A DNA stretch of 62,974 bases, counting the filler, from Stramenopiles sp. TOSAG23-6 (lineage: Eukaryota): NCBI GenBank assembly GCA_900128565.1. It is 9 parts of 9 records of this genome, joined end to end, with 100 filler letters (N's around TTAATTAATTAA, not from the genome) between each part and the next. Parts side by side here need not be neighbours in the genome. Positions count along the whole stretch, not along the records: positions 34,742 to 43,295 come from LT636443.1; 8 more parts are not named here. The stretch is one strand, 5' to 3'. The notes under the pieces are model-generated. The model had not been told where the DNA came from. It saw only the letters and a list, made by a program, of their open reading frames with translations, and ran no database searches. The position numbers and the translations under genes are program-made. Shown here in pieces: positions 17,285 to 55,300 of this stretch (the first letter of the stretch is position 1; the number at the start of each line of letters is the position of its first letter).

Positions 17285-18420
17285 NNNNNNNNNNNNNNNN
17301 NNNNNNNNNNNNNNNNNNNNNNNNNNNNTTAATTAATTAANNNNNNNNNNNNNNNNNNNNNNNNNNNNNNNNNNNNNNNNNNNNTTTTTTTTTTCAATTT
17401 CGAATTTATTTTTCGTACGAAATTTTGTACCTAACGATTTTCTTTTGAAATATTTTTCCAAAATACATGGTCTGGAAGAAACAAACACACAAAAAAATGA
17501 GGTCGGATTGAAGGTCTGATTTTTGTTTGATTTATGAAATTCATTATTGTCTGGAAAATAACCAATCACAAATTTTAAACTTTAAATGAAAAAATAAATT
17601 TGTTGTACATATTCTTTTTTTTTTTAAATTTCATGCACAAAAAAAAATATAATTGTAAATAATTAGACGTGTAATATATTTATTGTATAGTGTATAAAAA
17701 AATCATTTACGTTTGTTATTGATACTACGATACGTATGCTTCATTGAAGTTATCTGTAGAAGTATCTTTCTAATATTTGATGCGTTTCAACTTGTCAGTT
17801 TCAAAAACGCCAAAAGTTCGTCATCTGTCAAAAAACCCACACCAGCAGCTCTGGATAACTCCTCAAATAATTGTGTAATAATTGCACTATTGTTGACCTG
17901 TCAGCTTGAAGTACTTGGATTCGCTTTCACTTGACTCTGTTTTTCATTGAGTTCCGTGGAAAGGTTTGGGGATGCTGTGCATATTTGGCTCGAATCCCTT
18001 TTAACATGATTGATACTTTGACTGCCTCCCAGTCACTTCGAATCTTGAATTAGTGATTGGCCTAAAACCATGCTTCTCCGTGGTTAAAAGCTGCTTTATA
18101 ATTGAATTCGAATCGTCTCGTCAAAAATAAGCAAAGTTATTCCCACACTTTACTTTCAGTGGGCCCTCTTTTGTTTTTTTTTTACTAGAAAAATAAATTT
18201 ATTCAATAAGCAATTAAAAGTAAATCCGCGCGTAATCCAAGAGAGTGCTGTTATGTCATCATCATTTTTTTTTGACTGGCTTGATCTTGACGTTGATGAT
18301 GGCGCAGGTTTGTGATTTTGATTGTGAAAAGCCAAACAGAAAAAAAAAAGCCAAAAAAAAAAAAAGCTAAAAAAAATGTTAAAAATCCTATTTTAATTTA
18401 AAGAGAAAGACTTTTAAAGA

Positions 18421-20155: not shown

Positions 20156-20446
20156 TGTCTAATTAAAAGTATGGAAATAATTCTTTACAAAGTAATAAAA
20201 TTATGAAAATTATGAAAATTAAAAAGTCATTTTTTTGAATATACACGAAATCAAATCAAATCAAATCGATCTTAAATTCAAAAAACCAAAACTTTTTTAT
20301 TATGACACGCTTCTTCGTCTGATGGCAAACAGTATCAGAAATCTGAAAGAAAGTAAACAACTCTCTTGGCTTGGCTCTTTTCAATTCCTTTTTTTTCAAT
20401 TGGCTTTTTGAAATTACGCTTTAAATCATCACACAAAGTGGCAGAC

Positions 20447-21510
20447 ATGTCGAATATAAACAAATTTGGGATGAATTATACTTCAATTGAAAAATTTCTG
20501 CATCATTCTAAATTTTCAAAGTCAATTAGACATGCAAAAGAGGAAAGTATACCTACACCTAAAAGACGTAATCCTTTTGAAAAAGGTCAACCACGAACTC
20601 CACCTTCAAGTGGTGATTCAAGTTTAGAAAGTATTCATAATGAAAAGGGAGATGATAATGTGTATTCATTAGATTATCGTACTCGGTCTTATTCACAAGT
20701 TACTGAGTCTACAGCATATGACGCTCGTGATGATGTGGGTGGACAAACCTATGCGTATCAATCCGAGTTACCTAGATTACCCATACCTTCATTGGAACAT
20801 ACTTGCTCTCAATATTTAGAAATTATTGCTCCTTTATTAACCCCTGAAGAATTTCAAGAGACACAACGTGTTACGCAAGAATTCCTTCTAAATGATGGCC
20901 CAAAACTTCATGAAAAACTTTTAGAATATATACGTTTTTCTTATCTTTCATTTTCATTTTCAATTTTTTTTTTTTCCTACGAAATTTCGTACCTAACGGA
21001 TTTTTTTTTATTATCCAAAAAAAAAAAAAAAAAAAAAATATTTTTTCACAAAATATGACAAATCACCAGAAGCTGGTAATAGTTATGTTGAAAAATTTTG
21101 GTATTCTGGTTATTTATCTCCAGATGATACTGTCGTTTTGAATTTAAATCCATTTTTTGTACTGGCAGATGATCCATATATGTTTTATTTTTTTTTACTT
21201 TAATTTTTTTTTTCGTACGAAATTTCGTACCTAACAAGTTTTTTTAGATTTTTTTTTGAAATATTTTTCCAAAATACATATATGACTGCACGGATTTCTA
21301 ATGTATCAAAATCATCAAACCCTAACCCTAATGAACCTGATCATAGCCCTAACCCTAATCATCCACAAATAAAACGTGCAGCATCGATTATTTACTCTGC
21401 ACTTCGATTTGTTGAGAAATTGAGGGATGAGTCACTAGAACCAGATGTATATTTTCATTATGAATTTTATATTTATATTTTTTTTTATACGAAATTTTGT
21501 ACCTAAGCAA

Positions 21511-21560
<50 letters not shown>

Positions 21561-21652
21561 CCAATTTTTTTTTTTCAAAGTAAAATTCGTACCTAAAAAA
21601 AATTTTTTTTTTTTTTTTTTCTCACAGTACATGAATTAGTTACCTTTTCACA
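20447..21652 (+). CDS. Choline/carnitine O-acyltransferase, 5' part; introns 20930-21056, 21178-21279, 21447-21632
   Basis: QSELPRLPIPSLEHTCSQYL, GPKLHEKLLEY|DK...SYVEKFWYSGYL...LNLNPFF, QIKRAASII. Confidence 0.92.
20930..21056 (+). mobile_element. Family intron with AT start, 127 nt (AT|ATACGT...AAATAT|)
   Basis: Frame and acyltransferase motifs restored. Confidence 0.85.
21178..21279 (+). mobile_element. Family intron with AT start, 102 nt (AT|ATATGT...AATACAT|)
   Basis: Joins DDPY|MTAR. Confidence 0.85.
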
Positions 21653-21707
21653 NNNNNNNNNNNNNNNNNNNNNNNNNNNNNNNNNNNNNNNNNNNNNNNN
21701 NNNNNNN

Positions 21708-21799
21708 TGTGAAAAGGTAACTAATTCATGTACTGTGAGAAAAAAAAAAAAAAAAAATTTTTTTTAGGTACGAATTTTACTTTGAAAAAAAAAAATTGG

Positions 21800-21849
<50 letters not shown>

Positions 21850-22913
21850 TTGCTTAGGTACAAAATTTCGTATAAAAAAAAATATAAATATAAAATTCAT
21901 AATGAAAATATACATCTGGTTCTAGTGACTCATCCCTCAATTTCTCAACAAATCGAAGTGCAGAGTAAATAATCGATGCTGCACGTTTTATTTGTGGATG
22001 ATTAGGGTTAGGGCTATGATCAGGTTCATTAGGGTTAGGGTTTGATGATTTTGATACATTAGAAATCCGTGCAGTCATATATGTATTTTGGAAAAATATT
22101 TCAAAAAAAAATCTAAAAAAACTTGTTAGGTACGAAATTTCGTACGAAAAAAAAAATTAAAGTAAAAAAAAATAAAACATATATGGATCATCTGCCAGTA
22201 CAAAAAATGGATTTAAATTCAAAACGACAGTATCATCTGGAGATAAATAACCAGAATACCAAAATTTTTCAACATAACTATTACCAGCTTCTGGTGATTT
22301 GTCATATTTTGTGAAAAAATATTTTTTTTTTTTTTTTTTTTTTGGATAATAAAAAAAAATCCGTTAGGTACGAAATTTCGTAGGAAAAAAAAAAAATTGA
22401 AAATGAAAATGAAAGATAAGAAAAACGTATATATTCTAAAAGTTTTTCATGAAGTTTTGGGCCATCATTTAGAAGGAATTCTTGCGTAACACGTTGTGTC
22501 TCTTGAAATTCTTCAGGGGTTAATAAAGGAGCAATAATTTCTAAATATTGAGAGCAAGTATGTTCCAATGAAGGTATGGGTAATCTAGGTAACTCGGATT
22601 GATACGCATAGGTTTGTCCACCCACATCATCACGAGCGTCATATGCTGTAGACTCAGTAACTTGTGAATAAGACCGAGTACGATAATCTAATGAATACAC
22701 ATTATCATCTCCCTTTTCATTATGAATACTTTCTAAACTTGAATCACCACTTGAAGGTGGAGTTCGTGGTTGACCTTTTTCAAAAGGATTACGTCTTTTA
22801 GGTGTAGGTATACTTTCCTCTTTTGCATGTCTAATTGACTTTGAAAATTTAGAATGATGCAGAAATTTTTCAATTGAAGTATAATTCATCCCAAATTTGT
22901 TTATATTCGACAT
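21708..22913 (-). CDS. Mirror copy of the carnitine acyltransferase fragment
   Basis: Reverse complement of 20447-21652. Confidence 0.6.
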
Positions 22914-23204
22914 GTCTGCCACTTTGTGTGATGATTTAAAGCGTAATTTCAAAAAGCCAATTGAAAAAAAAGGAATTGAAAAGAGCCAAGCCAAGAGAGT
23001 TGTTTACTTTCTTTCAGATTTCTGATACTGTTTGCCATCAGACGAAGAAGCGTGTCATAATAAAAAAGTTTTGGTTTTTTGAATTTAAGATCGATTTGAT
23101 TTGATTTGATTTCGTGTATATTCAAAAAAATGACTTTTTAATTTTCATAATTTTCATAATTTTATTACTTTGTAAAGAATTATTTCCATACTTTTAATTA
23201 GACA

Positions 23205-24939
23205 TTAAAACACGAAAACAGCATCATCAAAACTGACTGTATCTGCTGATACTGCAACTGTTTCTAACCCTAACCCTAACCCTAACCCTAGTGCAACTGT
23301 CTCTCGATATTCTTGACATCTATCTTTATCACATGACATTGTCAATGTCGCATTCAATAGCGTTGTTGTTTTTGGTCCTGGGAAGCCTTCATTTTTATGT
23401 ATTTGTNAAAAAAAAAAAAAAAAAAAANTGTTAGGTACAAAATTTTTTTACAAAAAAAAAAAAATGAAATTAGGGTTAGGGTTGATGAAAAACTGACTAG
23501 TTTGTTCCTAACAAATTCAATAGTAGTCCAAGGACTCACAGAAATAGGCAGGTCTGTGTCAAAAGTAGCAAATACTGACGCAAGATTTTCAAATCCACCA
23601 TGTTCATTTAGAAAATATTTCAAAAAATATCAAATATGTTAGGTATATATATATATGTATAGTATTTGTAATGTTATTTGTACTCGTGAAAAAAAAAAAA
23701 AATTTCAAAAAAAAAAAAAATTTCAAAAAAAAAAAAAAAAATTCAAAATACTCGAAGAACATGACCAAATAAATATTCAAGAATTCCGCCATGAGTGACC
23801 ATTATTGCTTTATTTGTCCCAGAGTGACGAATTTTATTTTCAAATGACATGTATTTTGGAAAAAATNTTTNAAAAAAAANAAAAAAAAANTNTTNGGNAC
23901 AAAAATTTCGTACGAAAAAAAATTTCGAATTTGAAAAAAAGTACAACATACATGATACGTTTACAAATAGATTGATGTGTTTCATATGTTCCTTTTGAAA
24001 TATTTTCTATAATATACTAGAAAAAATATGTTTGCAATTTTTTTTGTTAGGTACGGAATTATCTACAAAAAAAAATTGAAAAAAAAAATATGAATTAATT
24101 TTTGCATTTTTGTTTTTTTTTGTTAGGTACGGAATTATCTACGAAAAAAAAAATTTGAAAAAAAAAAAATATTTTGAATTGAAAACATATTGATATTCTT
24201 TTTGAGGCCAATCTGCACCAAGACTTAATAAATCCTTCACAAATTGTTTTGTATTGATTTTGAGTACTTCATGTTTGCTCTGAATATGTTGTCTAACGAT
24301 GTTATGGACAAGATCTATAGCTACTCTGGGAGGATATGCATAATCAGAGTGGGTATGATATGCTTCACGGATATTTGTGCTGGGGATAAATTGATTATGT
24401 GTTACACTAAAAAGATGAAATGCTGTTTGAATACTACGACGAAGGGCACTGACATACACAGGAATATCAGTATGTAACCATTCCTTTGCAAATCTTTGGT
24501 CTAGGTGCATTACACGTGCCAGTTCATTGGCAGTCTTTTCACCTGTTACTGAAAGAAGACTGTCACGACTCGCGTAGTTTAGTTCCCGTAGCACTGCTTT
24601 TTCAAACTCTTTTTTATGATCAAACCAAGTCTCATAATATCCCTTGGCTATTTTGCAACTTAGTGTCGCAGAACTTGTAGGTAAGTCAGCTAAAACTTGA
24701 ATTCCAGGGTATTCATCTCCTTTTAGGTCCTTATTGATACAAATACCAGTCTGACAAATGTCACGGTATTGACGGAAGAAATCACTTCCCGCGCTTAAAA
24801 TTCCCCAAGACGAAGCCTGTTTAACACCAAGATTATTGAGAGACTCCCCGTGGCGAATGGCAGTCACCTCTATTGTTTTCCCACTCACTTTTTTGGTGAA
24901 GAAAATCGTAACAATAAAACTTATACTAAAGGCCTTCAT
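23205..24939 (-). CDS. Mirror copy of the histidine phosphatase
   Basis: Reverse complement of 18421-20155. Confidence 0.6.
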
Positions 24940-26130
24940 TCTTTAAAAGTCTTTCTCTTTAAATTAAAATAGGATTTTTAACATTTTTTTTAGCTTTTTT
25001 TTTTTTTGGCTTTTTTTTTTCTGTTTGGCTTTTCACAATCAAAATCACAAACCTGCGCCATCATCAACGTCAAGATCAAGCCAGTCAAAAAAAAATGATG
25101 ATGACATAACAGCACTCTCTTGGATTACGCGCGGATTTACTTTTAATTGCTTATTGAATAAATTTATTTTTCTAGTAAAAAAAAAACAAAAGAGGGCCCA
25201 CTGAAAGTAAAGTGTGGGAATAACTTTGCTTATTTTTGACGAGACGATTCGAATTCAATTATAAAGCAGCTTTTAACCACGGAGAAGCATGGTTTTAGGC
25301 CAATCACTAATTCAAGATTCGAAGTGACTGGGAGGCAGTCAAAGTATCAATCATGTTAAAAGGGATTCGAGCCAAATATGCACAGCATCCCCAAACCTTT
25401 CCACGGAACTCAATGAAAAACAGAGTCAAGTGAAAGCGAATCCAAGTACTTCAAGCTGACAGGTCAACAATAGTGCAATTATTACACAATTATTTGAGGA
25501 GTTATCCAGAGCTGCTGGTGTGGGTTTTTTGACAGATGACGAACTTTTGGCGTTTTTGAAACTGACAAGTTGAAACGCATCAAATATTAGAAAGATACTT
25601 CTACAGATAACTTCAATGAAGCATACGTATCGTAGTATCAATAACAAACGTAAATGATTTTTTTATACACTATACAATAAATATATTACACGTCTAATTA
25701 TTTACAATTATATTTTTTTTTGTGCATGAAATTTAAAAAAAAAAAGAATATGTACAACAAATTTATTTTTTCATTTAAAGTTTAAAATTTGTGATTGGTT
25801 ATTTTCCAGACAATAATGAATTTCATAAATCAAACAAAAATCAGACCTTCAATCCGACCTCATTTTTTTGTGTGTTTGTTTCTTCCAGACCATGTATTTT
25901 GGAAAAATATTTCAAAAGAAAATCGTTAGGTACAAAATTTCGTACGAAAAATAAATTCGAAATTGAAAAAAAAAANNNNNNNNNNNNNNNNNNNNNNNNN
26001 NNNNNNNNNNNNNNNNNNNTTAATTAATTAANNNNNNNNNNNNNNNNNNNNNNNNNNNNNNNNNNNNNNNNNNNNCATACGAAATTTCGTACCTAACGAT
26101 TTTTTTTTGAAATATTTTTTCACAATACAT

Positions 26131-33392: not shown

Positions 33393-34641
33393 ATGACAGT
33401 ATCAAGTGTAAACGAAGAGGGTGTTTGGTTGAATAAATTGCTCGCTTCACGTGGTCTTTGTGGTCGTCGCGATGGTGAAAAATTCATCAAACAAGGATTA
33501 GTTATAGTTGACGGTAAAGTGGCTACTTCTGGTACTCGTGTACATGCTGATGCAATTGTAAGATTATTACCAGAGGCTCAAAATAGTGTATCTAAAAATA
33601 TAGCTAAAACAAAAAAGAGTGTCTCTACAGTAGTAGCAGCTCCTGGTGCTTTGAAGCCACCAAGTGGTCTCAATCGCGCTGCACGTCGTGCGTTGAAGTT
33701 TGCAAACAAAACAGCACAAAAAGAAGAGATTACTACGACCCAACAAATAGCTACATCAACAATGCCACCAACAATAACAATACAAAAGACTCAAAACAAT
33801 GCTACCCTCAATACACACAATACACACAATACCTCCAAAGCGAAAAAAGAAAACATAAAGGGCTTCACTACTCCATCGGGACTTGTTCGGCTAACAAAGC
33901 TTCTTGCTCTTCGTGGGTTATGTTCTCGTAGAAATGCAATCAAATTTGTCAAAGAAGGTCTTGTTCGAATTGATGGTATTGATGCTTCCATTGATGGGCC
34001 AGGACAATTAATCAAACCATCATCAATTCTTGAAGTCATTTCACAAGAAAATGTTACAGAGAAAACAACTAGTAGTCGTATTATGAGTAAAGAACCAATC
34101 GTCAATAAAACATATAAGACTAAAATCGAGGCCAAGCATGATGCTACTATGAGAAGACTAAAAGCTCAAGATGCATTGAAACAGCATTCTATATCAAAAT
34201 CATCCCAGGGTATGATTTCATCTATATCAATCGATCCTTTACAATCAAATAAGGTTGTATTTGATCAGGAGAAAGTATCTAGTAGCAATGTTATTGTTGA
34301 TAAATCATCTAGTAGTAGCAATGATATTTTTGATAAATCATCTAGTAGTAGCAATGATATTGTTGATAAATCATCTAGTAGTAGTAGTGAGTCCGAGTTT
34401 GAAGTGGACGATTTTGGCTTGATTGCGGCTGTACAAAATGAAGCAAAAAAATCTGTTACTATTATACCCGATGTTATCCCAATGAAAATAAGTAATTCAA
34501 TGTCTGATGTTATCCCAATGAAAATAAATAATTCAATGTCTGATAATATGACCAAACGTGGTGATGAGGATATTTTGGAGTCGTCGTCATCATCTGAATC
34601 ATCATCTGAATCATCATCTGAATCATCATCTGAATCATCAT
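33393..34641 (+). CDS. Protein with two S4 RNA-binding domains (RsuA/RluF-type N-terminus); 3' truncated
   Basis: VWLNKLLASRGLCGRRDGEKFIKQGLVIVDG and VRLTKLLALRGLCSRRNAIKFVKEGLVRIDG. Confidence 0.8.
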
Positions 34642-35021
34642 NNNNNNNNNNNNNNNNNNNNNNNNNNNNNNNNNNNNNNNNNNNNTTAATTAATTAANNN
34701 NNNNNNNNNNNNNNNNNNNNNNNNNNNNNNNNNNNNNNNNNGGAAAATCGTCTCAAAGATGTTAAAATTCAACCTGAACCTGAACCTGAACCTGAAATTG
34801 TAATTGAACGTGAAGCTGAACCTGAAGCTGGAATTACAATTGAAGAACTCCAATCTGGATTTTAATCCTTTAGGACTGATAAAATTTTAAAAATTTTAGA
34901 AANTTNCAAAAATTTTCAAAATAATCATTTTAATGGTAATTGAATTTAATTTAAAAAACAAAACCAACTTTGATTTTTATAATTTTATAAATACTAGATA
35001 CTACACAATACTACAATACTA

Positions 35022-38000
35022 CTACACATTCAATTCTACATTGTTATTAGAAAATTTTGAATAAATTTCAATTATATTTTGTTCAAGTTGAGTAACCCTT
35101 GAATTAAGTTCCTTGATCACATTGTTTTGATTCACCATTTTTTGTTTCTCAGTATCAAGATTGCTTTCCAGTTGTCTACCTTTGGCTTGTAGATCCAAAA
35201 CATTTTTATGCAATTGAAGAATATACAATGAGGATTCTTCTACTTTTTCTAAAAGTCTTTTTATCCATAAACCTAAGTTAAACCCTTCTGATTTCATATC
35301 AGCGGCGCTTGTGACGTTGGGTAAATGTTTCTCTTTTTCTATAAATTTTTGAAATGCATCAAGTGGCATTAAAGGATAGTCTGGCTCAAAAACATAATCT
35401 GGCCAAGTGTCACCATTCGCATGAAAAATTGATCCACCGACTACAATATTCCCACCAGTTTCAATAGCCCCACCAATATTCAAATCTTGCATGATACCTA
35501 CACCTCCTGCAACAGTGAAAGTACCTGTGAGAGAAGAAGTAGAACCTGCATCTCCTTGTATATGTACTCCACCTCCGGTGTATACAGACATAGCGACCCC
35601 GACACCACCACCAACAATTAATGAACCCGAGTCCGTTGAAGTTGAAGGAAAACTAGTTGCAATTCCATCTTGCCAACCATCAACGGTTAGTCTCTGGTGA
35701 ACTTTCACACTACCACCAAGAAAACTTTCAGCATCAATATCAGTTTGTTGATTTATGTGAATCCGTTCACCAACATACAATTGCTTCCCGATTCCAGCAC
35801 CGCCAGCAGCAACAAATGAACCTGTGAGTGTGCTATCGCTTTGTGTGGTACCAGATGTTGATACATCGCCACCTGCATTCAATCCCCCCACAATACCAAC
35901 ACCACCAGCAATAGTAACCGTTCCACTAGTATTGTCTGTTGAGGCTGTCGAACCTGCTATGTGCAATCCATCTCCAATATATACATCTCCTGCTGCACTG
36001 AAACCACCAGCTGTGCTCAACGATCCGCTACTAGTATTTGTAGCAACACTAGTGCTTCCAATATTTACATCCCCTCCAATTCCTACACCACCACCAATTG
36101 TGACTGTTCCTGTTGTAGCTGAAGTTGAAGCCGTTGTCCCTTGTACATGTAAACCTCCTCCAATAAATGCAGTTTTCCCAATACCTGCACCACCACCTAC
36201 TACAAGAGAACCCGTGTGTGATGATGTACTGTCAGTAGTTGCATCAATACTAGTGATCCCACCAATGTTTACATTTTCACCAATACCAACACCACCAACA
36301 ACCGTGAGTGCACCATTGGTTGTTTGTGTAGATGTATTAACTGATTGGATATTTGCAGAGCCACCAACGAAAAGATTCATTGCTATACCAGCACCTCCAG
36401 ACGTAGTCAGTGCACCATGTAGACTTGAGTCGGCTTGTGTTGTACCACGACCATGAATTGATCGTCCAGAATAAATGTCATATGATACTCCAATACCACC
36501 AGTTACCGTTATAGTTCCTGTTTCAGCAGATTCAGAATGATGTCCACCTTTCACATTAATATGGTCACCAACATAAATACTTTTCTGTACTCCAAGACCA
36601 CCACTGACATTCAATGCACCTGATGTACTAGTTGNGGCATCTACCGAACCCGTTACTACCCCAATACCACCAACATAAAGGTCTGCAGCAACACCTACAC
36701 CTCCCGCAACAGTCACTGTACCTGAAGTAGCTGAAGTGGAATCAGATGTACCAACAACGCTTAACGTGGTGCCTACATTAACCGCCTTTGCAACACCAAT
36801 ACCGCCTGATAAAGTAAGAGCACCATTTAAACTGGAAGTTGAATCTGTAACACTTGCAATATCTAGATTACCACCAACAAACGCTTTTTTTGCAATGGCT
36901 GCGCCCCCAGATGTTGTGAATGAACCTCCTGTTGTAGCGTTTGATGCATCTGTATCATCAGTAATAGTTTGAGCTCCCGATACATTTAAATTCCCAGATA
37001 CTCCGATTCCTCCACCAAAAGTAGCAGCTCCTGATGTAGGTGATGTGGATTCAGTAGTCCCTTCTACATGAAGAGTTGCCCCAACATATAATTGTTTTGC
37101 AATACCTACACCACCAGCAACTTTCAATGAACCACTAGTACTTGAAGAAGATAGTGACTCGCCACCAATCGTAGCACCTTTTTTAATTCCAATACCACCC
37201 GCAAGAGTAATAGCCCCAGTTAATGATGACGATGTCACTGTAGCTGCACCAACATGTAAATCCTGACTTATACCAACTCCACCACTTACAGTAAGTGAGC
37301 CTGTTGATCCACTTGAAGATGAAAGATTTTTACCAATGTGAACAACTCCCCCAATGTAAAGATCTTCGCCTATACCAACCCCACCCATCGTAGTTAGTGC
37401 TCCCGTTGTACTTGACGTTGCACTGTAATCTCCTTCTACATGAAAAACTCCACCAACATATAAATTATCCGCAATGCCAACACCACCCAGTGTAGTGAAA
37501 GCTCCCGAACTAGCATCTGTTGCTGCTTCGGTGGACCCTATAGATAGTATCTCTCCTACATAAAGACCTTTTGCTATTCCAATGCCCCCTGCTACAGTAA
37601 TCGAACCACTAGAAGATGACGTAGAAACAGTCGTGGATGATATTATCGTCGATCCATCTGCTTTTACACGAAATACAGCGCCACCACTGTTCTCTGCCTG
37701 AATCAGATCAGGGCCTGATGACATGTTAGGAGCTTTAATGAGCAAAACGTCAACTGAGCTTGCTAGACTATTACCCTGTGATTCAATGGTAAATGTGTTA
37801 GAATTATTTACTGTTGTAGTAACAGTTGCAGCGTCGTTGAAAGTTGAAGTTCCAGCAACCGTAATTCCACCACCCTGCACATCCAAGCCGCCAGATGTAA
37901 TTGTAGCACCTCCTGCAGAAACAGTCAGCCCGCCAGCTGAAACTGTAATACCTCCAGCTGCTACTGAAAGCCCACCTGTGTGAATTGTAGTTTCACCATC

Positions 38001-39755
38001 GCCACCAATATCAAATACAGTAGTTGTAGTGCCAGCGATTGCACGAAATAGTTTAAATTCACATGGGTCATTATTGCATGAATTTGTTGTAGATGTAATG
38101 AAGACATTATCAGTAAAAGTTGCATCTGTTTCTTTATGAGCCAGCATGACATAGTCCTGGGTTAGTGTATGACTTCCATCTGTAGCCGCTACTAAACTCG
38201 ACATTGTCAAATTTCCTGTGACGGACACAGCACCAGCAAAGGTAACCGCGGCCGAAAATTCAGCTGTCGAGCAAAACATCTTACCATCAGCTCGAACGCG
38301 CCATTTTTCAACTGAACTTGCAGAAATGTATAATGCATTCGCTGTACTGGAAGCATTTGTATCAAGGTTAATAATAACAGCATTTCCAGAAAAAGAAGTA
38401 CCCGTCATATCAACTTTAAATCCACTATTTACATTACCAGCGTTATATGTGCTTGTTACTGCAACACCTGCAGTTGAAGTTGAGACAGCAAGACCTTCTG
38501 TTGTTGTCACATACTTAGTATTAATGGTATCAATAGATAACGCACCATCTCCTCTTACGGAAAAAACAGAGACATTGTTGGCTTGAGCGTCTAAAAACTT
38601 AAAATCCGTGCTTGCACTCTTCGTTGTTGAAAGTTGAAGAACATTGCTTGTAAAACCCGAATATTCGCTACCCAAGGTTAGTGCCGGGGTATTATCACCC
38701 CAAGCAATATTATCTGATGCAACATCGCATAAAGTACCCGTGTATCCTGAGAAGCATGTACACTGGCCACTTGTGAAATCACAAATTCCATTACCAGCAC
38801 AATATTCGTATTCCACAATGTTGGATACGGCAACATTTGTCGGATTAACTGCGACCGTACAAGTAGGAGTTGTACCGCCAGTAACATCATCAGTAAAACA
38901 TTGAAAACTTTCCACAGTGGGAATAGTTCCTTGAGAATATATATTATTCAAGGATGCTTGTTGTGTAAATACTAGACCTAATGTGTAAGTGACGCCTCCT
39001 TCAGCGTCTGCTGTACCAACTGTACATGTTGACGTCGCAGCTACATTGCTTAACGCTGATATAATTGAACTCGCACAGGTACTGTCAGTAGCATTGGCAC
39101 CATCTGCCGTAAAGGTTGCTTCAAAACCCTGATACAGTAATGAGAACGTTCCCGCCAGTGTTCCACCCGCTGCACCAGTTGTAATAGTCACTACGACGTT
39201 GGACTGTCCTGTAGTTTTTGGATTATCACCTTTTGGGCACGTTTTAAGGGAACAATCTGGGCCCGTATATCCGACATCACAAGCACAAATTCCCATAGTA
39301 TTTTTCTCCCAGTTCGTGTACACTGGGCCAAGTCCAGAACCAAGTTGTGATTGAGGTCCGTAGTACTTCGCAGCTTGACTCGTCGTCTTGCACACTCCAT
39401 GTTGACTACAATTGTTTGGACAACTTTTTTTTGCACAGTTATCGCCTTCCCAACCGTCAAAACAAATACACACACCCGTACGTCTATTGCATTTACCTGC
39501 ATTACTACACTCTACCAAGGAATGTGCAACCGTTGATCCGCTTGGTTTATCAAACCATGCCTCCCCAGAAGGACAGACCTGTTGTGAACAGTCATTGCTG
39601 TATCCATATCCTGGGTAGCAAGTACATGTCTGGCCGGAGCAAGTACCTTTCCCAGAGCAGTTATTTGGACATGCTGCGTGTATATATGATGCAATTAAAA
39701 CAAGAAATGTGAATAGTATGACTGATAGGTCATTAAAATTCCTTCTGCGCTGCAT
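35022..39755 (-). CDS. Secreted EGF-repeat (mastigoneme-like) / tail-fibre-like repeat protein with WPDYVF chaperone-like domain and coiled coil
   Basis: Signal peptide; CPNNCSGKGTC..CPSGEAWFD..ECSNAGKCNRRTGVC; >20 ST-x-TGALTVxGGVGIxxxLxVG repeats; WPDYVF...KHLP.V.SA...LLEKVEE..LYI. Confidence 0.9.
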   Translation of the reverse strand: MQRRRNFNDLSVILFTFLVLIASYIHAACPNNCSGKGTCSGQTCTCYPGYGYSNDCSQQVCPSGEAWFDKPSGSTVAHSLVECSNAGKCNRRTGVCICFDGWEGDNCAKKSCPNNCSQHGVCKTTSQAAKYYGPQSQLGSGLGPVYTNWEKNTMGICACDVGYTGPDCSLKTCPKGDNPKTTGQSNVVVTITTGAAGGTLAGTFSLLYQGFEATFTADGANATDSTCASSIISALSNVAATSTCTVGTADAEGGVTYTLGLVFTQQASLNNIYSQGTIPTVESFQCFTDDVTGGTTPTCTVAVNPTNVAVSNIVEYEYCAGNGICDFTSGQCTCFSGYTGTLCDVASDNIAWGDNTPALTLGSEYSGFTSNVLQLSTTKSASTDFKFLDAQANNVSVFSVRGDGALSIDTINTKYVTTTEGLAVSTSTAGVAVTSTYNAGNVNSGFKVDMTGTSFSGNAVIINLDTNASSTANALYISASSVEKWRVRADGKMFCSTAEFSAAVTFAGAVSVTGNLTMSSLVAATDGSHTLTQDYVMLAHKETDATFTDNVFITSTTNSCNNDPCEFKLFRAIAGTTTTVFDIGGDGETTIHTGGLSVAAGGITVSAGGLTVSAGGATITSGGLDVQGGGITVAGTSTFNDAATVTTTVNNSNTFTIESQGNSLASSVDVLLIKAPNMSSGPDLIQAENSGGAVFRVKADGSTIISSTTVSTSSSSGSITVAGGIGIAKGLYVGEILSIGSTEAATDASSGAFTTLGGVGIADNLYVGGVFHVEGDYSATSSTTGALTTMGGVGIGEDLYIGGVVHIGKNLSSSSGSTGSLTVSGGVGISQDLHVGAATVTSSSLTGAITLAGGIGIKKGATIGGESLSSSSTSGSLKVAGGVGIAKQLYVGATLHVEGTTESTSPTSGAATFGGGIGVSGNLNVSGAQTITDDTDASNATTGGSFTTSGGAAIAKKAFVGGNLDIASVTDSTSSLNGALTLSGGIGVAKAVNVGTTLSVVGTSDSTSATSGTVTVAGGVGVAADLYVGGIGVVTGSVDAXTSTSGALNVSGGLGVQKSIYVGDHINVKGGHHSESAETGTITVTGGIGVSYDIYSGRSIHGRGTTQADSSLHGALTTSGGAGIAMNLFVGGSANIQSVNTSTQTTNGALTVVGGVGIGENVNIGGITSIDATTDSTSSHTGSLVVGGGAGIGKTAFIGGGLHVQGTTASTSATTGTVTIGGGVGIGGDVNIGSTSVATNTSSGSLSTAGGFSAAGDVYIGDGLHIAGSTASTDNTSGTVTIAGGVGIVGGLNAGGDVSTSGTTQSDSTLTGSFVAAGGAGIGKQLYVGERIHINQQTDIDAESFLGGSVKVHQRLTVDGWQDGIATSFPSTSTDSGSLIVGGGVGVAMSVYTGGGVHIQGDAGSTSSLTGTFTVAGGVGIMQDLNIGGAIETGGNIVVGGSIFHANGDTWPDYVFEPDYPLMPLDAFQKFIEKEKHLPNVTSAADMKSEGFNLGLWIKRLLEKVEESSLYILQLHKNVLDLQAKGRQLESNLDTEKQKMVNQNNVIKELNSRVTQLEQNIIEIYSKFSNNNVELNV

Positions 39756-40024
39756 TGTTCGGGAAACCACACAAATTTATCTTTCCAAATGAAAACTATA
39801 ATTGTAGTTACGTTGTTACGTTGTGCCGTTAGGGTATCATAGTATCCGTACCATTAAAGTACGAAATTGAAAAGGGCAGTTACTTTATCGAGTACCCGGT
39901 ACCTCTATTTAGAAATTTTTCATTTATTTATTAGAATCAAAATAAACCAATAAAATGATATATCACACTTTGCTTTATATTGTTGTATCTATTATTTTTG
40001 TTTATTTTGTCAAATCATACCATG

Positions 40025-40129
40025 CCATACGTAGGGTTAGGGTTTAAAATATTGAAGTTCCATACATAGGGTTAGGGTTTAAAATATTGAAGTTCCATAC
40101 GTAGGGTTAGGGTTTAAAATATTGAAGTT
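40025..40129. repeat. 35-bp tandem repeat x3 containing TAGGGTTAGGG and the 3' end of the adjacent gene
   Basis: ccatacgtagggttagggtttaaaatattgaagtt repeated. Confidence 0.9.
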
Positions 40130-41456
40130 CAGACGCAACCATACCACAAGATTTGATATCATTAATTAGTGAAGTGGGACCGGCAACAAGTGCAGCTAAC
40201 TGGTCATCATTCGGTTTAAAGATGACCATTGAACTCACAATACATGCAGGAGTAGATTTAGGGAAATCAAAAAGAGGAATATGAAAATCTTGTGTTGTAG
40301 GGTTAGGGCTCCCATTTGGAAGTTTTACAACTTTTGCAAACTTTGACCAATTAGTAATTGCACCATATGTACNTTNAGTGATATGTTCCCAGTTAGTTGG
40401 CATGGATGAAGAACTATCACGTTTATATATTGGTCCTGTCACACTCTTTCGTATCAATGACGGTAATAGATAATCTTCTTTTCTATATGCTATTAAATCT
40501 TCATAGTTTCCAATTTGGTCATCATCAAGATTTTCAANCTTCCCTCTAAAATTAATAGCCATAATAGCAACATCACATTGAAGGACGTTGCAAAATGTTG
40601 AAACAAGAATGTCATTTGTTGAAATAAATGCTACATTACGGTTATCATTATTTTTTGATTTATGTTTTGATTTTTGTTCATCGAGCCAAGTTTTTGAAAT
40701 GTAGAAACCAAAAGAATCTGTTGAAGGGAAGAACATATTTTTCAATACACCANAAATGAAACGAAATAAAAACCCTGGTGGAGGTGACATGAACGACAAT
40801 TCACCTCCCATAGCTTCTTTGATTTTAGAGGGTATTTTTTGATTTCTATCAGGAGAGAGAGCTTCAACTTTTGCTTCACTCGAAAGCATGTTGAATATTC
40901 TATAATAACCGTGTCCGTCTAACAATGAGTGATTTGCACTTACAATTAGAGCAAACTTATTCCGACCATTCGGGATAAGTGTTACTCTCCAAAGAGGTTT
41001 ATTTGTACCTTCTGTTTCTTCACTTGTACCACACAGAAAGGGCGAAAGACTTTTAACCATCGAATGATAATTAGAAGACAAATCAACTGTTCGAACGGTG
41101 AACCAATATCCTTGTTCAATGAGTGGACCAGACGACGGTGGAATAAAGATAGTTAACTCACCGTTCTCGTCGCGATCAAGTATACCACATAACCAAGGAT
41201 TTGCAATAAGTATTTCTTTTGTGCGAGCAGAGAAATACTTTGTCGCTTCTGAAAGAGAACCTGAAAAGTAAGTGATCGTGCTCGTCGCTGGAGCTTTGCA
41301 AATCATGGGGCCAACCTCGTTAGGCAGAAGTTTAAGTCTTTTGTAACTCGAATACCGTTTTTTTCGTTGATGATAGCGGAACCAACTCCAACCTTGATGT
41401 GCCACAAAGAGACCAGCCACGACAGTTGCTGCTACGGCCATGTTAGAGTCCGTCAT
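40107..41456 (-). CDS. CoA-dependent acyltransferase-fold protein (HxxxD) with N-terminal anchor
   Basis: PLWRVTL...SANHSLLDGHG; ISTNDILVS. Confidence 0.75.
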   Translation of the reverse strand: MTDSNMAVAATVVAGLFVAHQGWSWFRYHQRKKRYSSYKRLKLLPNEVGPMICKAPATSTITYFSGSLSEATKYFSARTKEILIANPWLCGILDRDENGELTIFIPPSSGPLIEQGYWFTVRTVDLSSNYHSMVKSLSPFLCGTSEETEGTNKPLWRVTLIPNGRNKFALIVSANHSLLDGHGYYRIFNMLSSEAKVEALSPDRNQKIPSKIKEAMGGELSFMSPPPGFLFRFIXGVLKNMFFPSTDSFGFYISKTWLDEQKSKHKSKNNDNRNVAFISTNDILVSTFCNVLQCDVAIMAINFRGKXENLDDDQIGNYEDLIAYRKEDYLLPSLIRKSVTGPIYKRDSSSSMPTNWEHITXXTYGAITNWSKFAKVVKLPNGSPNPTTQDFHIPLFDFPKSTPACIVSSMVIFKPNDDQLAALVAGPTSLINDIKSCGMVASELQYFKP

Positions 41457-41645
41457 GATATTATATTGTACTTGTTTTTGTTTCCGAACAGAAAAATAGT
41501 TCATTGAAAAGAAACTAGATTTGATTGGATGGAAGAATTAAATAAATAGCTAATCGTAATTTGATGGGCGGTTACGGTTTCCTATATTTACAGTATAGAT
41601 TTTTTTTGAATAATAGGCTATGAAAAAAGATACAGACAGTATACC

Positions 41646-42029
41646 ATGTACGGATCAGGGAAGTCGCTTTTCAATAATGCCATGAATGGTACATCACAAA
41701 CAACTCCACATGATATCCATGGACACACTGATTTCACGAAACCCTATAAACATTATGATGAAAAAGGTCTTGAATATGCACATGGTCACTATGATCAGTA
41801 CGGAAATTATGATTCGCATTATACACATTACNATNAAAANGGTCAANTTGATNCACANGGTCANTATGATGAATGGGGCGAATATGATTCATATTATACC
41901 AATCATTCTACAACTAATCCTTCTACGACAACAAAGCCTTATCATTATAATTTTTCAAACGATGAACTTTCATATTTTGCAGCTATAGGTGGACAGTATA
42001 AAGACCAATACGCAAAAAAAAATTATTGA
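41646..42029 (+). CDS. Small Tyr/His/Gly-rich repetitive protein
   Basis: 127-aa ATG ORF with GHYDQYG-like repeats. Confidence 0.5.
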   Translation: MYGSGKSLFNNAMNGTSQTTPHDIHGHTDFTKPYKHYDEKGLEYAHGHYDQYGNYDSHYTHYXXXGQXDXXGXYDEWGEYDSYYTNHSTTNPSTTTKPYHYNFSNDELSYFAAIGGQYKDQYAKKNY

Positions 42030-42268
42030 GAAATAAAAAAATTCCTCATTTTAGATTGATAAAATTTATTAAAGTGCATTAGTTATTAGTATATTACGGA
42101 AAATTTCGTCCCAAGCGCAAGGAAATTTTCTTATTTAACGATATAGATTCAGTATAATGTCAGTTGTCCGTCGTTTTTAAAGTACCTGTATTTTGGATAC
42201 CTTTTGGTTTATTTGGGGTACCTTCACATACATACGTAACGAATGTAATAAATCGCGCAGGATATTTT

Positions 42269-43229
42269 TCAAGCATTTATGAAACATTCTTTCAAAAACG
42301 AAATGGAACATATTTCGTGTTCTAAAGCGGGTGCATATATATTTTCATTCGAAACATCTCGTTCTAGTGCTTGTATAAACATTACTGAATGTTTCTTATT
42401 CACACTACTTTTTATTTTATTTGAATCATGATTTTTTTTCGATTTTTTTATTTCATTTTGTGATTTGTTTGATTTTGGATTGGAGACCATTTTAATTCCA
42501 TTTACTACAGGGAAATTTCCTTCTTTACACTGCAAATATACAGAATTCCGTAAAGAATTTGCAATTTTTTCTTGAGTAATTTTTCCATGTTTTGNGACAA
42601 GATTGCGTACTGTTTTTTCTGCGTTTTTTTCTGATCTGTTGTGTACACTATTATTTACATCATCCTTTATTTTTGTTGTATTTTTTATTTTATGCCTTTT
42701 TTTCATTTGTTGAACTAAATTATGCAATGAAGATACACATGTTGGTATATACCTTAATAATGCTTTCTTTTTATTGGCAATATCTGAGCTTTCCTTTTTC
42801 TTTTTAATATGTTTGCGTAACTGTATACAACAACCAGTGAGTGCTTTAAGTATTGAATTTTGTAGTGGAACAATACCATCAGATATGAATTCTTTTCCTG
42901 TTCCTTTAAAAGGAATACATGTACTAACTATTGAAATAAAAACACCAACACAATTAGTTTTAGGACATATACCATAGGAAGACCATTTCACTCGTCTATT
43001 TGCTGTTCGGCTCATAACTCCACTGCCACCGTCGAAAAGAAGAGGGATTCTATTTGCAAATCGATATACTTGAATTCCAGGTTTAATACCATTTTTCATA
43101 TTAACTTTTGTACCTCCTTTTACAGTATTTCCCCCAAGAGCAACCGCAGCTTCTACAATAAATGGATGACCTTCCCAGGCACCCGATTCTGCATTTGATG
43201 TAGCCACTAAATCTGGTTGAAATTCCTTC
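42269..43229 (-). CDS. TOP6B: DNA topoisomerase VI subunit B, last exon (transducer domain), after a truncated family intron 43230-43295
   Basis: PDLVAT...EGHPFIVEAAVALGG, RFANRIPLLF, VFISIVSTCIPFKGTGKEFI. Confidence 0.9.
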
Positions 43230-43450
43230 ATGTATTGTGAAAAAATATTTAAAAAAAANCGTTNGGNAACAAANTTTTTATAAAAAAATAAATTCNNNNN
43301 NNNNNNNNNNNNNNNNNNNNNNNNNNNNNNNNNNNNNNNTTAATTAATTAANNNNNNNNNNNNNNNNNNNNNNNNNNNNNNNNNNNNNNNNNNNNTTTCG
43401 TACCTAACAAATTTAAGTTTTTTTTTTTGAAATATTTTTCCAAAATACAT

Positions 43451-51855: not shown

Positions 51856-52322
51856 ATGTATTGTGAAAAAATATTTTAAATTCAAAATTTGTTAGGTACG
51901 AAATTTGGTACAAAAAAAAATCCGAAATTGAAATGAATGATANNNNNNNNNNNNNNNNNNNNNNNNNNNNNNNNNNNNNNNNNNNNTTAATTAATTAANN
52001 NNNNNNNNNNNNNNNNNNNNNNNNNNNNNNNNNNNNNNNNNNGGAAAATCGTCTCAAAGATGTTAAAATTCAACCTGAACCTGAACCTGAACCTGAAATT
52101 GTAATTGAACGTGAAGCTGAACCTGAAGCTGGAATTACAATTGAAGAACTCCAATCTGGATTTTAATCCTTTAGGACTGATAAAATTTTAAAAATTTTAG
52201 AAANTTNCAAAAATTTTCAAAATAATCATTTTAATGGTAATTGAATTTAATTTAAAAAACAAAACCAACTTTGATTTTTATAATTTTATAAATACTAGAT
52301 ACTACACAATACTACAATACTA

Positions 52323-55300
52323 CTACACATTCAATTCTACATTGTTATTAGAAAATTTTGAATAAATTTCAATTATATTTTGTTCAAGTTGAGTAACCCT
52401 TGAATTAAGTTCCTTGATCACATTGTTTTGATTCACCATTTTTTGTTTCTCAGTATCAAGATTGCTTTCCAGTTGTCTACCTTTGGCTTGTAGATCCAAA
52501 ACATTTTTATGCAATTGAAGAATATACAATGAGGATTCTTCTACTTTTTCTAAAAGTCTTTTTATCCATAAACCTAAGTTAAACCCTTCTGATTTCATAT
52601 CAGCGGCGCTTGTGACGTTGGGTAAATGTTTCTCTTTTTCTATAAATTTTTGAAATGCATCAAGTGGCATTAAAGGATAGTCTGGCTCAAAAACATAATC
52701 TGGCCAAGAGTACCCACCAGACGGCTGAAAAATTGATCCACCAATGTCAATATCCCCACCAACATTCAAATCTTTCATGATACCTACACCTCCTGCAACA
52801 GTGAAAGTACCTGTGAGAGAAGAAGAAGAAGCTGCATCTCCTTGTATATGTACTCCACCTCCGGTATATACAGACATAGCGACCCCGACACCACCACCAA
52901 CAATTAATGAACCCGAGTCCGTTGAAGTTGAAGGAAAACTAGTTGCAATTCCATCTTGCCAACCATCAACGGTTAGTCTCTGGTGAACTTTCACACTACC
53001 ACCAAGAAAACTTTCAGCATCAATATCAGTTTGTTGATTTATGTGAATCCGTTCACCAACATACAATTGCTTCCCGATTCCAGCACCGCCAGCAGCAACA
53101 AATGAACCTGTGAGTGTGCTATCGCTTTGTGTGGTACCAGATGTTGATACATCGCCACCTGCATTCAATCCCCCCACAATACCAACACCACCAGCAATAG
53201 TAACCGTTCCACTAGTATTGTCTGTTGAGGCTGTCGAACCTGCTATGTGCAATCCATCTCCAATATATACATCTCCTGCTGCACTGAAACCACCAGCTGT
53301 GCTCAACGATCCGCTACTAGTATTTGTAGCAACACTAGTGCTTCCAATATTTACATCCCCTCCAATTCCTACACCACCACCAATTGTGACTGTTCCTGTT
53401 GTAGCTGAAGTTGAAGCCGTTGTCCCTTGTACATGTAAACCTCCTCCAATAAATGCAGTTTTCCCAATACCTGCACCACCACCTACTACAAGAGAACCCG
53501 TGTGTGATGATGTACTGTCAGTAGTTGCATCAATACTAGTGATCCCACCAATGTTTACATTTTCACCAATACCAACACCACCAACAACCGTGAGTGCACC
53601 ATTGGTTGTTTGTGTAGATGTATTAACTGATTGGATATTTGCAGAGCCACCAACGAAAAGATTCATTGCTATACCAGCACCTCCAGACGTAGTCAGTGCA
53701 CCATGTAGACTTGAGTCGGCTTGTGTTGTACCACGACCATGAATTGATCGTCCAGAATAAATGTCATATGATACTCCAATACCACCAGTTACCGTTATAG
53801 TTCCTGTTTCAGCAGATTCAGAATGATGTCCACCTTTCACATTAATATGGTCACCAACATAAATACTTTTCTGTACTCCAAGACCACCACTGACATTCAA
53901 TGCACCTGATGTACTAGTTGTGGCATCTACCGAACCCGTTACTACCCCAATACCACCAACATAAAGGTCTGCAGCAACACCTACACCTCCCGCAACAGTC
54001 ACTGTACCTGAAGTAGCTGAAGTGGAATCAGATGTACCAACAACGCTTAACGTGGTGCCTACATTAACCGCCTTTGCAACACCAATACCGCCTGATAAAG
54101 TAAGAGCACCATTTAAACTGGAAGTTGAATCTGTAACACTTGCAATATCTAGATTACCACCAACAAACGCTTTTTTTGCAATGGCTGCGCCCCCAGATGT
54201 TGTGAATGAACCTCCTGTTGTAGCGTTTGATGCATCTGTATCATCAGTAATAGTTTGAGCTCCCGATACATTTAAATTCCCAGATACTCCGATTCCTCCA
54301 CCAAAAGTAGCAGCTCCTGATGTAGGTGATGTGGATTCAGTAGTCCCTTCTACATGAAGAGTTGCCCCAACATATAATTGTTTTGCAATACCTACACCAC
54401 CAGCAACTTTCAATGAACCACTAGTACTTGAAGAAGATAGTGACTCGCCACCAATCGTAGCACCTTTTTTAATTCCAATACCACCCGCAAGAGTAATAGC
54501 CCCAGTTAATGATGACGATGTCACTGTAGCTGCACCAACATGTAAATCCTGACTTATACCAACTCCACCACTTACAGTAAGTGAGCCTGTTGATCCACTT
54601 GAAGATGAAAGATTTTTACCAATGTGAACAACTCCCCCAATGTAAAGATCTTCGCCTATACCAACCCCACCCATCGTAGTTAGTGCTCCCGTTGTACTTG
54701 ACGTTGCACTGTAATCTCCTTCTACATGAAAAACTCCACCAACATATAAATTATCCGCAATGCCAACACCACCCAGTGTAGTGAAAGCTCCCGAACTAGC
54801 ATCTGTTGCTGCTTCGGTGGACCCTATAGATAGTATCTCTCCTACATAAAGACCTTTTGCTATTCCAATGCCCCCTGCTACAGTAATCGAACCACTAGAA
54901 GATGACGTAGAAACAGTCGTGGATGATATTATCGTCGATCCATCTGCTTTTACACGAAATACAGCGCCACCACTGTTCTCTGCCTGAATCAGATCAGGGC
55001 CTGATGACATGTTAGGAGCTTTAATGAGCAAAACGTCAACTGAGCTTGCTAGACTATTACCCTGTGATTCAATGGTAAATGTGTTAGAATTATTTACTGT
55101 TGTAGTAACAGTTGCAGCGTCGTTGAAAGTTGAAGTTCCAGCAACCGTAATTCCACCACCCTGCACATCCAAGCCGCCAGATGTAATTGTAGCACCTCCT
55201 GCAGAAACAGTCAGCCCGCCAGCTGAAACTGTAATACCTCCAGCTGCTACTGAAAGCCCACCTGTGTGAATTGTAGTTTCACCATCGCCACCAATATCAA

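Follow-up and report, generated by a model that had tools for sequence, protein, structure and literature searches.

A predicted secreted fibre protein of an uncultured marine stramenopile joins a mastigoneme-like EGF base to a shaft with viral relatives and a bacterial-type C-terminal module

The window analysed here, a stretch of 62,974 nt of DNA from assembly GCA_900128565.1 of Stramenopiles sp. TOSAG23-6, contains a gene for a predicted secreted fibre protein. On the minus strand the frame 35022–39770 is open throughout, and its first ATG, at 39755, starts a protein of 1577 aa with one X, which stems from a single N at 36635. Five parts were distinguished in this protein: a signal peptide, a Cys-rich EGF module, a middle region of 366 aa, a shaft of 21 Gly-rich units and a module with the pattern PDYVF...KHLP...LLEKVEE that runs into a coiled coil. 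The EGF base has its named relatives mainly among oomycetes, the shaft is related to viral fibres and the C-terminal module to bacterial proteins. With moderate confidence, the gene is interpreted as nuclear and expressed, belonging to a marine flagellate of stramenopile type that has not been cultured, and as encoding a secreted fibre that is anchored by its Cys-rich base and has three parts of different ancestry. The features of the gene, in positions of the window, are the following.

35022–39755, minus strand: fibre gene copy 1, a single open frame of 1577 codons plus stop
39672–39755, minus strand: signal peptide (aa 1–28), with a basic start and a hydrophobic core at aa 10–28; cleavage site set by eye
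38718–39671, minus strand: Cys-rich EGF base (aa 29–346), with EGF at aa 29–176 and 319–346 and a Cys-containing insert domain between them
37620–38717, minus strand: middle region (aa 347–712), with four '...VFxVxxDG...' motifs and a run of 7-aa GGxTV units
35451–37619, minus strand: shaft (aa 713–1435), 21 Gly/Ser/Thr-rich units with the consensus SxxxGxxTxxGGxGIxxxLxVGG and no Cys
35211–35450, minus strand: bacterial-type C-terminal module (aa 1436–1515), PDYVF...KHLP...LLEKVEE..LY
35025–35270, minus strand: long C-terminal helix or coiled coil (aa 1496–1577), overlapping the end of the module

This layout agrees with the original prediction for the locus, made from the sequence alone, which had described a signal peptide, a Cys-rich EGF region (~39670–38720), more than 20 repeats (~37630–35410), a WPDYVF...LLEKVEE stretch followed by a coiled coil, and a gene without introns over 4.7 kb. 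The corresponding observations were a hydropathy peak at aa 10–28, Pfam EGF families at aa 29–176 and 319–346, 21 units detected at aa 713–1438 by a repeat hidden Markov model (HMM), WPDYVF from aa 1451 with a long helix at aa 1496–1570, and an uninterrupted open reading frame (ORF) of 1577 aa. The signal peptide was judged from hydropathy: the Kyte–Doolittle maximum of 2.17 at aa 10–28 marks the sole strongly hydrophobic 19-aa window, the runner-up (1.67) lying within a Gly-rich repeat, and the hydropathy scan of the whole protein revealed no membrane-anchor-like segment after the signal peptide. All 31 Cys residues of the protein are located before aa 600. Outside the EGF region there was no Pfam or NCBIfam match, and PHROGs gave nothing beyond E 4e-4. 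The middle region had no Pfam family and no PDB sequence match; it is common to the relatives P0004, P0005, P0008 and P0023, and its coding sequence includes a 21-nt DNA repeat at 37908–37960.

On the base, Pfam recognized EGF families only, namely EGF_Teneurin (E 3.9e-18, four stretches), EGF_2 (E 4.4e-13, three stretches) and, just under its cut-off, EGF_TEN (E 2.9e-16). All 19 Cys residues of aa 29–173 were conserved in 11–12 of the 12 aligned relatives. A search with aa 1–360 retrieved 43 proteins at E≤1e-3, and those with names were from oomycetes (Thraustotheca, Pythium and Phytophthora), plus one frog tenascin. The oomycete EGF proteins matched the base at E 1e-30 to 1e-57; vertebrate tenascins were added by the full-length search, with far weaker scores. 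In Atlas, a language-model look-up in which cluster names are automatic and similarity is a lead and not an alignment, the cluster nearest to the base was 'Tubular mastigoneme protein family protein' (0.96, 212 of 256 features), followed by 'Sig2 family protein' (0.94). From its sequence, the base is likely to be a member of the Sig/tubular mastigoneme family. The resemblance of the N-terminus to stramenopile mastigoneme (Sig-type) proteins, which had been recognized earlier, is thus supported by the EGF_2 and EGF_Teneurin matches, by the oomycete relatives and by the Atlas cluster names.

Parts of two published reports describe Sig and mastigoneme proteins as carrying three to four EGF domains of tenascin type behind a signal peptide (PMC12223298, PMC3652789), and the Sig homologues of brown algae as EGF proteins, again tenascin-like, that have been given the annotation of tubular mastigoneme proteins (PMC3652789). 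The fibre protein shares with Sig1-3, Ocm1 and PnMas1-3 the signal peptide, the tenascin-type EGF domains (PF07974 and PF23106), the absence of a membrane anchor and named relatives that are stramenopile. It is unlike these proteins, which are described as ~64 kDa in size, with 3–4 EGF domains and no fibre part, in that it adds a fibre of ~1200 aa.

The site at which such a fibre would be carried was considered in the light of this kinship. Attachment to flagellar hairs is possible but doubtful. A fibre of the cell coat, of a cyst or stalk matrix, or of the feeding surface of the cell body, unrelated to flagellar hairs, is a credible alternative that falls somewhat short of an even chance: the EGF proteins of the Sig family are numerous in oomycetes, of which the part of PMC12223298 used here counts three as established mastigoneme proteins, and the fibre protein is far larger than the known mastigoneme proteins, whereas the sole counter-evidence consists of the Atlas cluster names and the family's known link to hairs, as given in parts of PMC3652789 and PMC12223298.

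The HMM built from the shaft's own units scored each of the 21 units at 25.8–50.3 bits (i-Evalue 3e-10 to 7e-18). Repeat lengths are 34 aa as a rule and 28 aa in some cases, apart from a single 31-aa insert, and 22 % of the shaft residues are Gly. No ~102-nt tandem period was detected in the shaft DNA by Tandem Repeats Finder, and the units are therefore old and diverged. When aa 700–1440 were used as the query, 1020 of the 7999 scored proteins matched at E≤1e-3, with relatives 29–41 % identical over up to 99 % of the region and E values down to 2.4e-139. The shaft unit was present in all 119 relatives that were re-scanned (P0002 excluded), with a median of 15 copies and a maximum of 26. PF13884 (Peptidase_S74) was found in the precomputed Pfam column of 24 out of 120 shaft relatives among the matches listed, and the SDxRxK motif in 25 of the 119. 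The PDYVF motif occurred in none of the 119 relatives, and no EGF family appeared in their precomputed Pfam columns.

The viral connection of the shaft was seen in several collections. One subgroup, of the P0264 type and with the UniRef label 'viral metagenome', was represented at 78 IMG/VR loci, and two of the three IMG/VR records searched (159 kb and 202 kb) carry several major-capsid genes of nucleocytoplasmic large DNA viruses (NCLDV), at E ~1e-54. In the third, a 219-kb record with a P0223 relative, no NCLDV capsid gene was seen; this record is rated 49 % complete, so that the result is no evidence of absence. The S74 fibres of the P0227 type had no relatives in IMG/VR. The only matches of the shaft among GenBank phages were a single marine virus record and, at 41–42 % over 119 aa (E 1e-5), the tail-fibre-like protein of the Prochlorococcus phages P-SSM2 and P-SSM5. 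The claim that the repeats are like those of marine phage and giant-virus fibres is therefore upheld, as the units recur in records bearing NCLDV capsid genes and in the P-SSM2 and P-SSM5 proteins.

The 159-kb and 202-kb records, those behind loci L116 and L180, each have 8–10 NCLDV capsid-family matches and a 1535-aa fibre gene with the 34-aa unit; at L116 this gene is close to a 1357-aa ORF that matches tail-fibre PHROGs.

The shaft would have a beta-helical fold. PDB sequence searches returned nothing significant for it, the best E value of the unit profile being 0.35. An arrangement other than an intertwined trimeric beta-helix, for example single-chain beta-solenoid arms of which the coil would join two, three or four as a bouquet, is considered unlikely. 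It would suit the resemblance of the units to hexapeptide strings, the weak matches to left-handed beta-helix acyltransferases (E 0.35–1.7) and the label 'DUF342 acyltransferase' that the Joint Genome Institute (JGI) has given to some shaft relatives, and the oligomer model covered three copies alone; however, AlphaFold2 (AF2) gave no confident single-chain solenoid, its predicted local distance difference test (pLDDT) of 52.5 being weak evidence because the alignment was shallow, and S74, which part of PMC10769870 presents as a domain of trimeric beta-helix fibres, terminates many proteins that have this unit.

The last 142 aa were used in an exhaustive phmmer search, which returned 32,682 cluster representatives at E≤1e-3, of which 8100 reached E≤1e-10; identity was 35–59 % among the best matches, and non-self E values went down to 5.9e-40. 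The module was nearly always C-terminal in the matched proteins, and some of them carry two or three copies. Similarity to the bacterial proteins begins ~15 residues before WPDYVF, at the end of the last shaft unit. The examples inspected have the look of secreted proteins of bacteria and finish with the module and a coiled coil; one of them is from an Ignavibacteria metagenome-assembled genome. The core of the module, ~65 aa in length, has invariant D, V, F, Y, L, L-P, E-K-x-E-E and L residues, giving 12 invariant columns (alignment A1). A profile scan of GTDB confirmed at least 547 stretches (547 of 600 among the matches listed); the same scan with a single protein instead of a profile gave no match. 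The rows of the module tree comprised 53 Bacteroidota, 11 Acidobacteriota and 5 Pseudomonadota. By these similarities the module is a very large bacterial family, mostly of Bacteroidota, of which the protein described here is a clear member, and the earlier statement that the WPDYVF module is common in Bacteroidetes is confirmed by the GTDB profile scan.

No Pfam, NCBIfam or PDB match was obtained for the module, tblastn of the C-terminal 142 aa against GenBank phage records gave no match at E≤0.01, and a full-text literature search for 'PDYVF', with supplementary files outside its scope, returned one unrelated paper only. IMG/VR contained 28 loci with the module, one of them directly behind a baseplate-wedge gene, and another module ORF matched tail-fibre PHROGs and was close to a terminase gene. 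In two Bacteroidota genomes, neighbours of the module gene carry the type IX secretion sorting domain. The stretch just upstream of the module in bacterial members matched the trimeric Bdellovibrio MAT fibres in the PDB (8ond, E 1.5e-7; 8ol4, E 1.7e-4). The protein is like the rest of the family in its 35–59 % identity, the 12 invariant columns, the C-terminal position of the module and the trailing coiled coil; it is unlike the other members examined, all of which look bacterial or phage-borne and lack the 34-aa shaft unit (found in 0 of 151 module-bearing proteins).

Two side observations concern the bacterial members. In multi-copy proteins such as P0072, each copy of the module is followed by a coiled coil. 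In Brumimicrobium oceani (L015, 835–5330), at least five tandem ORFs of ~205–220 aa precede a 388-aa module ORF and a type IX secretion substrate follows it; the tandem ORFs look like a cassette array of small paralogues.

The original prediction had likened the WPDYVF module to the Peptidase_S74 intramolecular chaperone. The likeness is one of position. P0005 (2228 aa) and P0008 (2107 aa) are full-length sisters that have the signal peptide and EGF base in common with the fibre protein, continue with Gly-rich beta repeats and end in S74 and a coiled coil; P0005 aligns to aa 25–633, which includes the middle region, and again to aa 594–1576. P0004 has the base and four shaft units followed by yet another end, and P0003 (1004 aa) has the EGF base with a different short helical motif in its last 40 aa. 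The family thus keeps its base and changes its C-terminal end, since these relatives end in S74 (P0005 and P0008) or otherwise (P0004 and P0003). The PDYVF module stands where S74 stands in the sister proteins, C-terminal behind a fibre shaft and followed by a helix.

Apart from this position, no similarity to S74 was detectable. PF13884 gave no match for the C-terminal piece of the protein at E≤10, nor for any of 20 module-family members at E≤1. When the module was compared by hhalign with an alignment of the S74-ending fibres, the probability was 3.5 %, over just 15 coiled-coil columns. The SDxRxK motif, present in P0005 and P0008, is absent from the protein, and there is no invariant Ser among the 12 invariant columns of A1. 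Foldseek searches of the PDB with the C-terminal model gave nothing at E≤0.001, and a wide VIA-align search listed generic coiled coils only (Z≤6.5) and no S74 structure; both were run on the model of module plus coil and say little on the small domain.

That the module is nevertheless a divergent intramolecular chaperone of S74 type, which would trimerize the shaft and then cleave itself off, is considered improbable. Its place is that of S74 in P0005, P0008 and the 24 of 120 listed shaft relatives, it is followed, like S74, by a coiled-coil helix, and one Atlas row at 0.82, a lead only at that score, was an S74 cluster. These points are set against the missing PF13884 match, the low hhalign probability and the lack of both SDxRxK and an invariant Ser; in addition, two to three internal copies of the module occur in some bacterial proteins, which would be odd for a terminal unit that cleaves itself.

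A relative of P0004 with 60 % identity was seen on a 41.6-kb metagenome contig of low GC content (L187, 4072–9834). Its neighbours (RING, pectinacetylesterase and M23) are compatible with a eukaryote and not decisive. The match starts at residue 87, and what precedes it in the protein may be encoded by an exon of its own; the 1919-aa ORF of this locus had no Pfam family.

When the last 142 aa were modelled as an AF2 monomer, a pLDDT of 85.5 was obtained, with two short helices followed by a helix of ~75 residues (residues 61–135 of the piece, aa 1496–1570; pLDDT 95–98). The three-copy model reached an interaction prediction score from aligned errors (ipSAE) of 0.87 in all three runs, compared with 0.52, 0.10 and 0.00 for controls, with contact agreement of at least 92 % and partner pLDDT of at least 85. 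The mark applied to the trimer had been calibrated with two copies, not three, and was reached by 21 of 30 solved homo-pairs and by none of 23 single chains. Judged by its contacts, the modelled coil is parallel and in register; V/I alternate with L in its core, and the short helices of one chain pack on the coil of the next. Module and coil thus probably hold three chains together, as modelled, and the number three is favoured because there are relatives that end in S74 and because bacterial members match crystallized trimeric fibres. Of the trimeric beta-fibre that had been proposed, the model therefore favours the C-terminal part (0.87 against 0.52); for the shaft part the model was poor.

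The authenticity of the gene was assessed from public sequence data. The closest protein was the EukProt coding sequence P0002 (GSMAST32.ASY1.ANO1.325.1), 96 % identical and representing the same gene as a second copy in the window (copy 2, see below). This 1376-aa model drops several stretches of repeats as introns, and it looks over-spliced because at least one of the omitted stretches is present, in line with the genome, in an RNA-library contig. At least part of the gene was contained in 19 public runs from 10 studies. In an independent seawater metagenome, 30 of 30 bins of copy 2 were covered by three contigs of 762, 2023 and 2501 nt, with 2–3 differing letters each. The 762-nt contig spans the stop codon, the coil, the module and the last repeats, and the 2501-nt contig spans the first repeat, the middle region, the EGF base and upstream DNA. 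Contigs from RNA libraries were ≥99 % identical, and one of them, 1845 nt in length, links coil, module and shaft units in unbroken sequence and includes a stretch that is missing from the P0002 model; a further RNA run yielded six contigs and a polyA-selected run three. Gene stretches that lack RNA-contig cover carry no weight either way. None of the records reaches across the entire gene, and a 19-nt overlap in the first repeat is bridged by the original assembly alone.

These data bear on the possibility that the gene does not belong to the flagellate, being of giant-virus or bacterial origin, part of an integrated virus, or created when the assembly fused eukaryotic with foreign DNA. This possibility is regarded as very improbable. 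Such an origin would be in keeping with the viral and bacterial relatives of the shaft and end-piece, with the amplification artefacts of the assembly (a 4395-nt palindrome and redundant contigs), with the small size of the contig (8.5 kb) and with a 465-aa neighbour that has no Pfam family. Yet the N-terminal 350 aa are of stramenopile type and begin with a signal peptide, the shaft relatives contain neither the module motif (0 of 119) nor, in their Pfam columns, an EGF family, and fusions of EGF and fibre parts recur in P0004, P0005 and P0008. The GC content at third codon positions (GC3) of all five gene parts is 0.19–0.31, like that of the other ORFs (0.17–0.34), and no part of the gene stands out as recently imported; an ORF with a Topo-VIB domain is located on the same contig. 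An assembly chimera is unlikely because independent DNA and RNA contigs span the domain junctions, and contigs from the polyA-selected library hold the gene. Reads across the domain junctions had been named beforehand as a check, and the junctions are indeed bridged by the independent metagenome and RNA contigs; nor do the repeats and C-terminus match eukaryotic families only, viral and bacterial relatives having been found for them.

The window as a whole consists of separate contigs of ~8.7 to ~8.5 kb, sorted by length and joined by eight linkers of the form N44-TTAATTAATTAA-N44. Sequences that flank a linker need not be genomic neighbours because the linkers join separate contigs. The real contig of the fibre gene is 34742–43295 (8.5 kb), and the features that define it, together with the second copy of the gene, are as follows.

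Starts at 8594, 17285, 25976, 34642, 43296, 51943, 60582 and 61779: artificial linkers, 100 nt each
34642–34741: artificial linker, left boundary of the gene's real contig
43296–43395: artificial linker, right boundary of the gene's real contig
52323–57041, minus strand: fibre gene copy 2 (1572 aa), on the separate redundant contig 52043–60581

The proteins of copies 1 and 2 are identical at 1558 of 1578 aligned positions, and their differences, which include a 6-aa gap, are mostly within 45 residues around the junction of shaft and module. Copy 2 is the form found in the independent metagenome and RNA contigs. Its contig (52043–60581) repeats the whole contig of copy 1, with the fibre gene, the 465-aa ORF and the Topo-VIB ORF; the two copies are redundant contigs. 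A tandem duplication was rejected as a reading of the two copies, which are on separate contigs joined by artificial linkers.

The real neighbours of the fibre gene on its contig are the 465-aa ORF (40107–41504; second copy 57393–58790), which has an N-terminal hydrophobic stretch and no Pfam family, and the ORF with a Topo-VIB transducer domain, and nothing else. On other contigs of the assembly, HLH, Rad23 XPC-binding and cytosolic carboxypeptidase domains were identified. The contig 17385–25975 is a perfect palindrome, with a 4395-nt inverted repeat around an N55 gap, and looks like an amplification or assembly chimera. An S4-domain ORF (33393–34697) runs into a linker.

By analogy, the nearest known design is the phage tail fibre, together with its cellular derivative, the Bdellovibrio MAT fibre. 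The S74 fibres of phages and giant viruses, including that of P-SSM2, are like the present protein in having the same 34-aa unit (median 15 copies) and, behind it, a C-terminal folding domain with a coiled coil; they are unlike it in that those listed have neither an EGF family nor PDYVF (0 of 119), whereas the present protein has no S74. With the MAT fibres (8ond, 8ol4, 8oml and 8ojn) it would share a design principle, in which a cell builds a surface fibre of its own on a trimeric shaft of phage type. As set out in part of PMC10769870, the C-terminal end of MAT proteins is S74 or has been swapped ('NS74'), and the predator Bdellovibrio uses the fibres on its prey. MAT fibres differ in being bacterial and in having tips of beta-sandwich or TNF-like lectin type, not a helical cap with a coiled coil, and the present protein has no GxG[TS]xxP loop motif, while its shaft has no PDB match. 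A third comparison is with MyRF, the established eukaryotic use of the phage-type S74 stalk and chaperone, which is mentioned in PMC10769870. Like the present protein as modelled, MyRF is a eukaryotic protein that trimerizes via a phage-fibre-type module (PMC10769870), and a weak PDB row (7dc3, E 0.18) was obtained; it is unlike the present protein, which is predicted to be secreted and has no S74, in being a membrane-bound transcription factor with S74 self-cleavage.

The interpretation favoured here, that of a secreted fibre held by its Cys-rich base, would operate as follows. The protein would enter the secretory pathway, and its module and coiled coil would unite three chains in parallel register, the small helical module clasping the coil of the neighbouring chain. 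This registration of the chains could let the repeat shaft fold from its C-terminal end into a beta-rich fibre, which would be the job of S74 in the sister proteins. The module probably stays on the mature fibre because it lacks a protease signature, unlike S74. The disulfide-rich EGF base would attach the fibre to further EGF proteins, either at the cell surface or in flagellar hairs, and the shaft would project outward as a candidate adhesin.

Several observations weigh against this interpretation. For the shaft, the AF2 monomer of six units was poor (pLDDT 52.5, predicted template modelling score 0.36) and is silent on the fold, the alignment being shallow and MAFFT having aligned the shifted own repeats at identity without adding depth; no solved structure matches the unit, and the Pro-containing loop motif GxG[TS]xxP had no match in the protein, a looser pattern also finding nothing in three bacterial members. 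For the C-terminal end, the model covered three copies alone, and a core of V/I and L suits, by model-peptide rules, dimers as well as trimers. In a FastTree tree of the 85-aa module (96 rows) the protein was placed in no bacterial group, with nearest path lengths of ~1.5 and a starred clade that held its two copies only. RNA-library contigs can contain DNA, and their coverage was partial (11, 17 and 5 of 30 bins); the genomic context given by a contig of just 8.5 kb is thin. The link to mastigonemes rests on automatic cluster names and shared EGF families, and the fibre protein is ~3 times the length of PnMas1, a protein of 64 kDa according to part of PMC12223298.

A more specific proposal is that of a capture fibre borne on the hairs or surface of a bacterivorous flagellate, with a mastigoneme-type foot, a domesticated giant-virus or phage shaft, and paralogues that would swap their ends (S74, the PDYVF cap and others). 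This we regard as unlikely. At a similarly low level of confidence, the exchange of ends among paralogues might be compared to the swapping of host-range cassettes in phages. The fine terminal or lateral filaments of tubular hairs would be one candidate site, again an unlikely one; we know of no proteins assigned to these filaments. If the proposal were true, a eukaryotic predator would have rebuilt a viral and bacterial toolkit for the recognition of bacterial surfaces.

What appears to be new, as judged by homology, is a secreted eukaryotic fibre on an EGF base of Sig/mastigoneme type, with S74-bearing sisters and an end-piece from a huge, uncatalogued bacterial family. A literature search on eukaryotic S74 or tail fibres and on horizontal transfer of tail-fibre genes to stramenopiles, which did not extend to supplementary files, found no description of such a fibre. 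Two of its parts have a wider bearing: the 34-aa shaft unit is common in giant-virus fibres and has no solved structure, and the module family, very large and missing from Pfam, NCBIfam and the PDB, may represent a general trimerization cap for surface fibres. In the organism itself, an EGF module that a eukaryote uses on its hairs or surface would have been joined to fibre parts with viral and bacterial relatives. Much of the grazing on ocean bacteria is due to uncultured marine stramenopile flagellates, and the molecules by which they touch their prey are, to our knowledge, not known. The fibre gene may thus offer a concrete, expressed candidate for a prey-contact molecule of marine flagellates.

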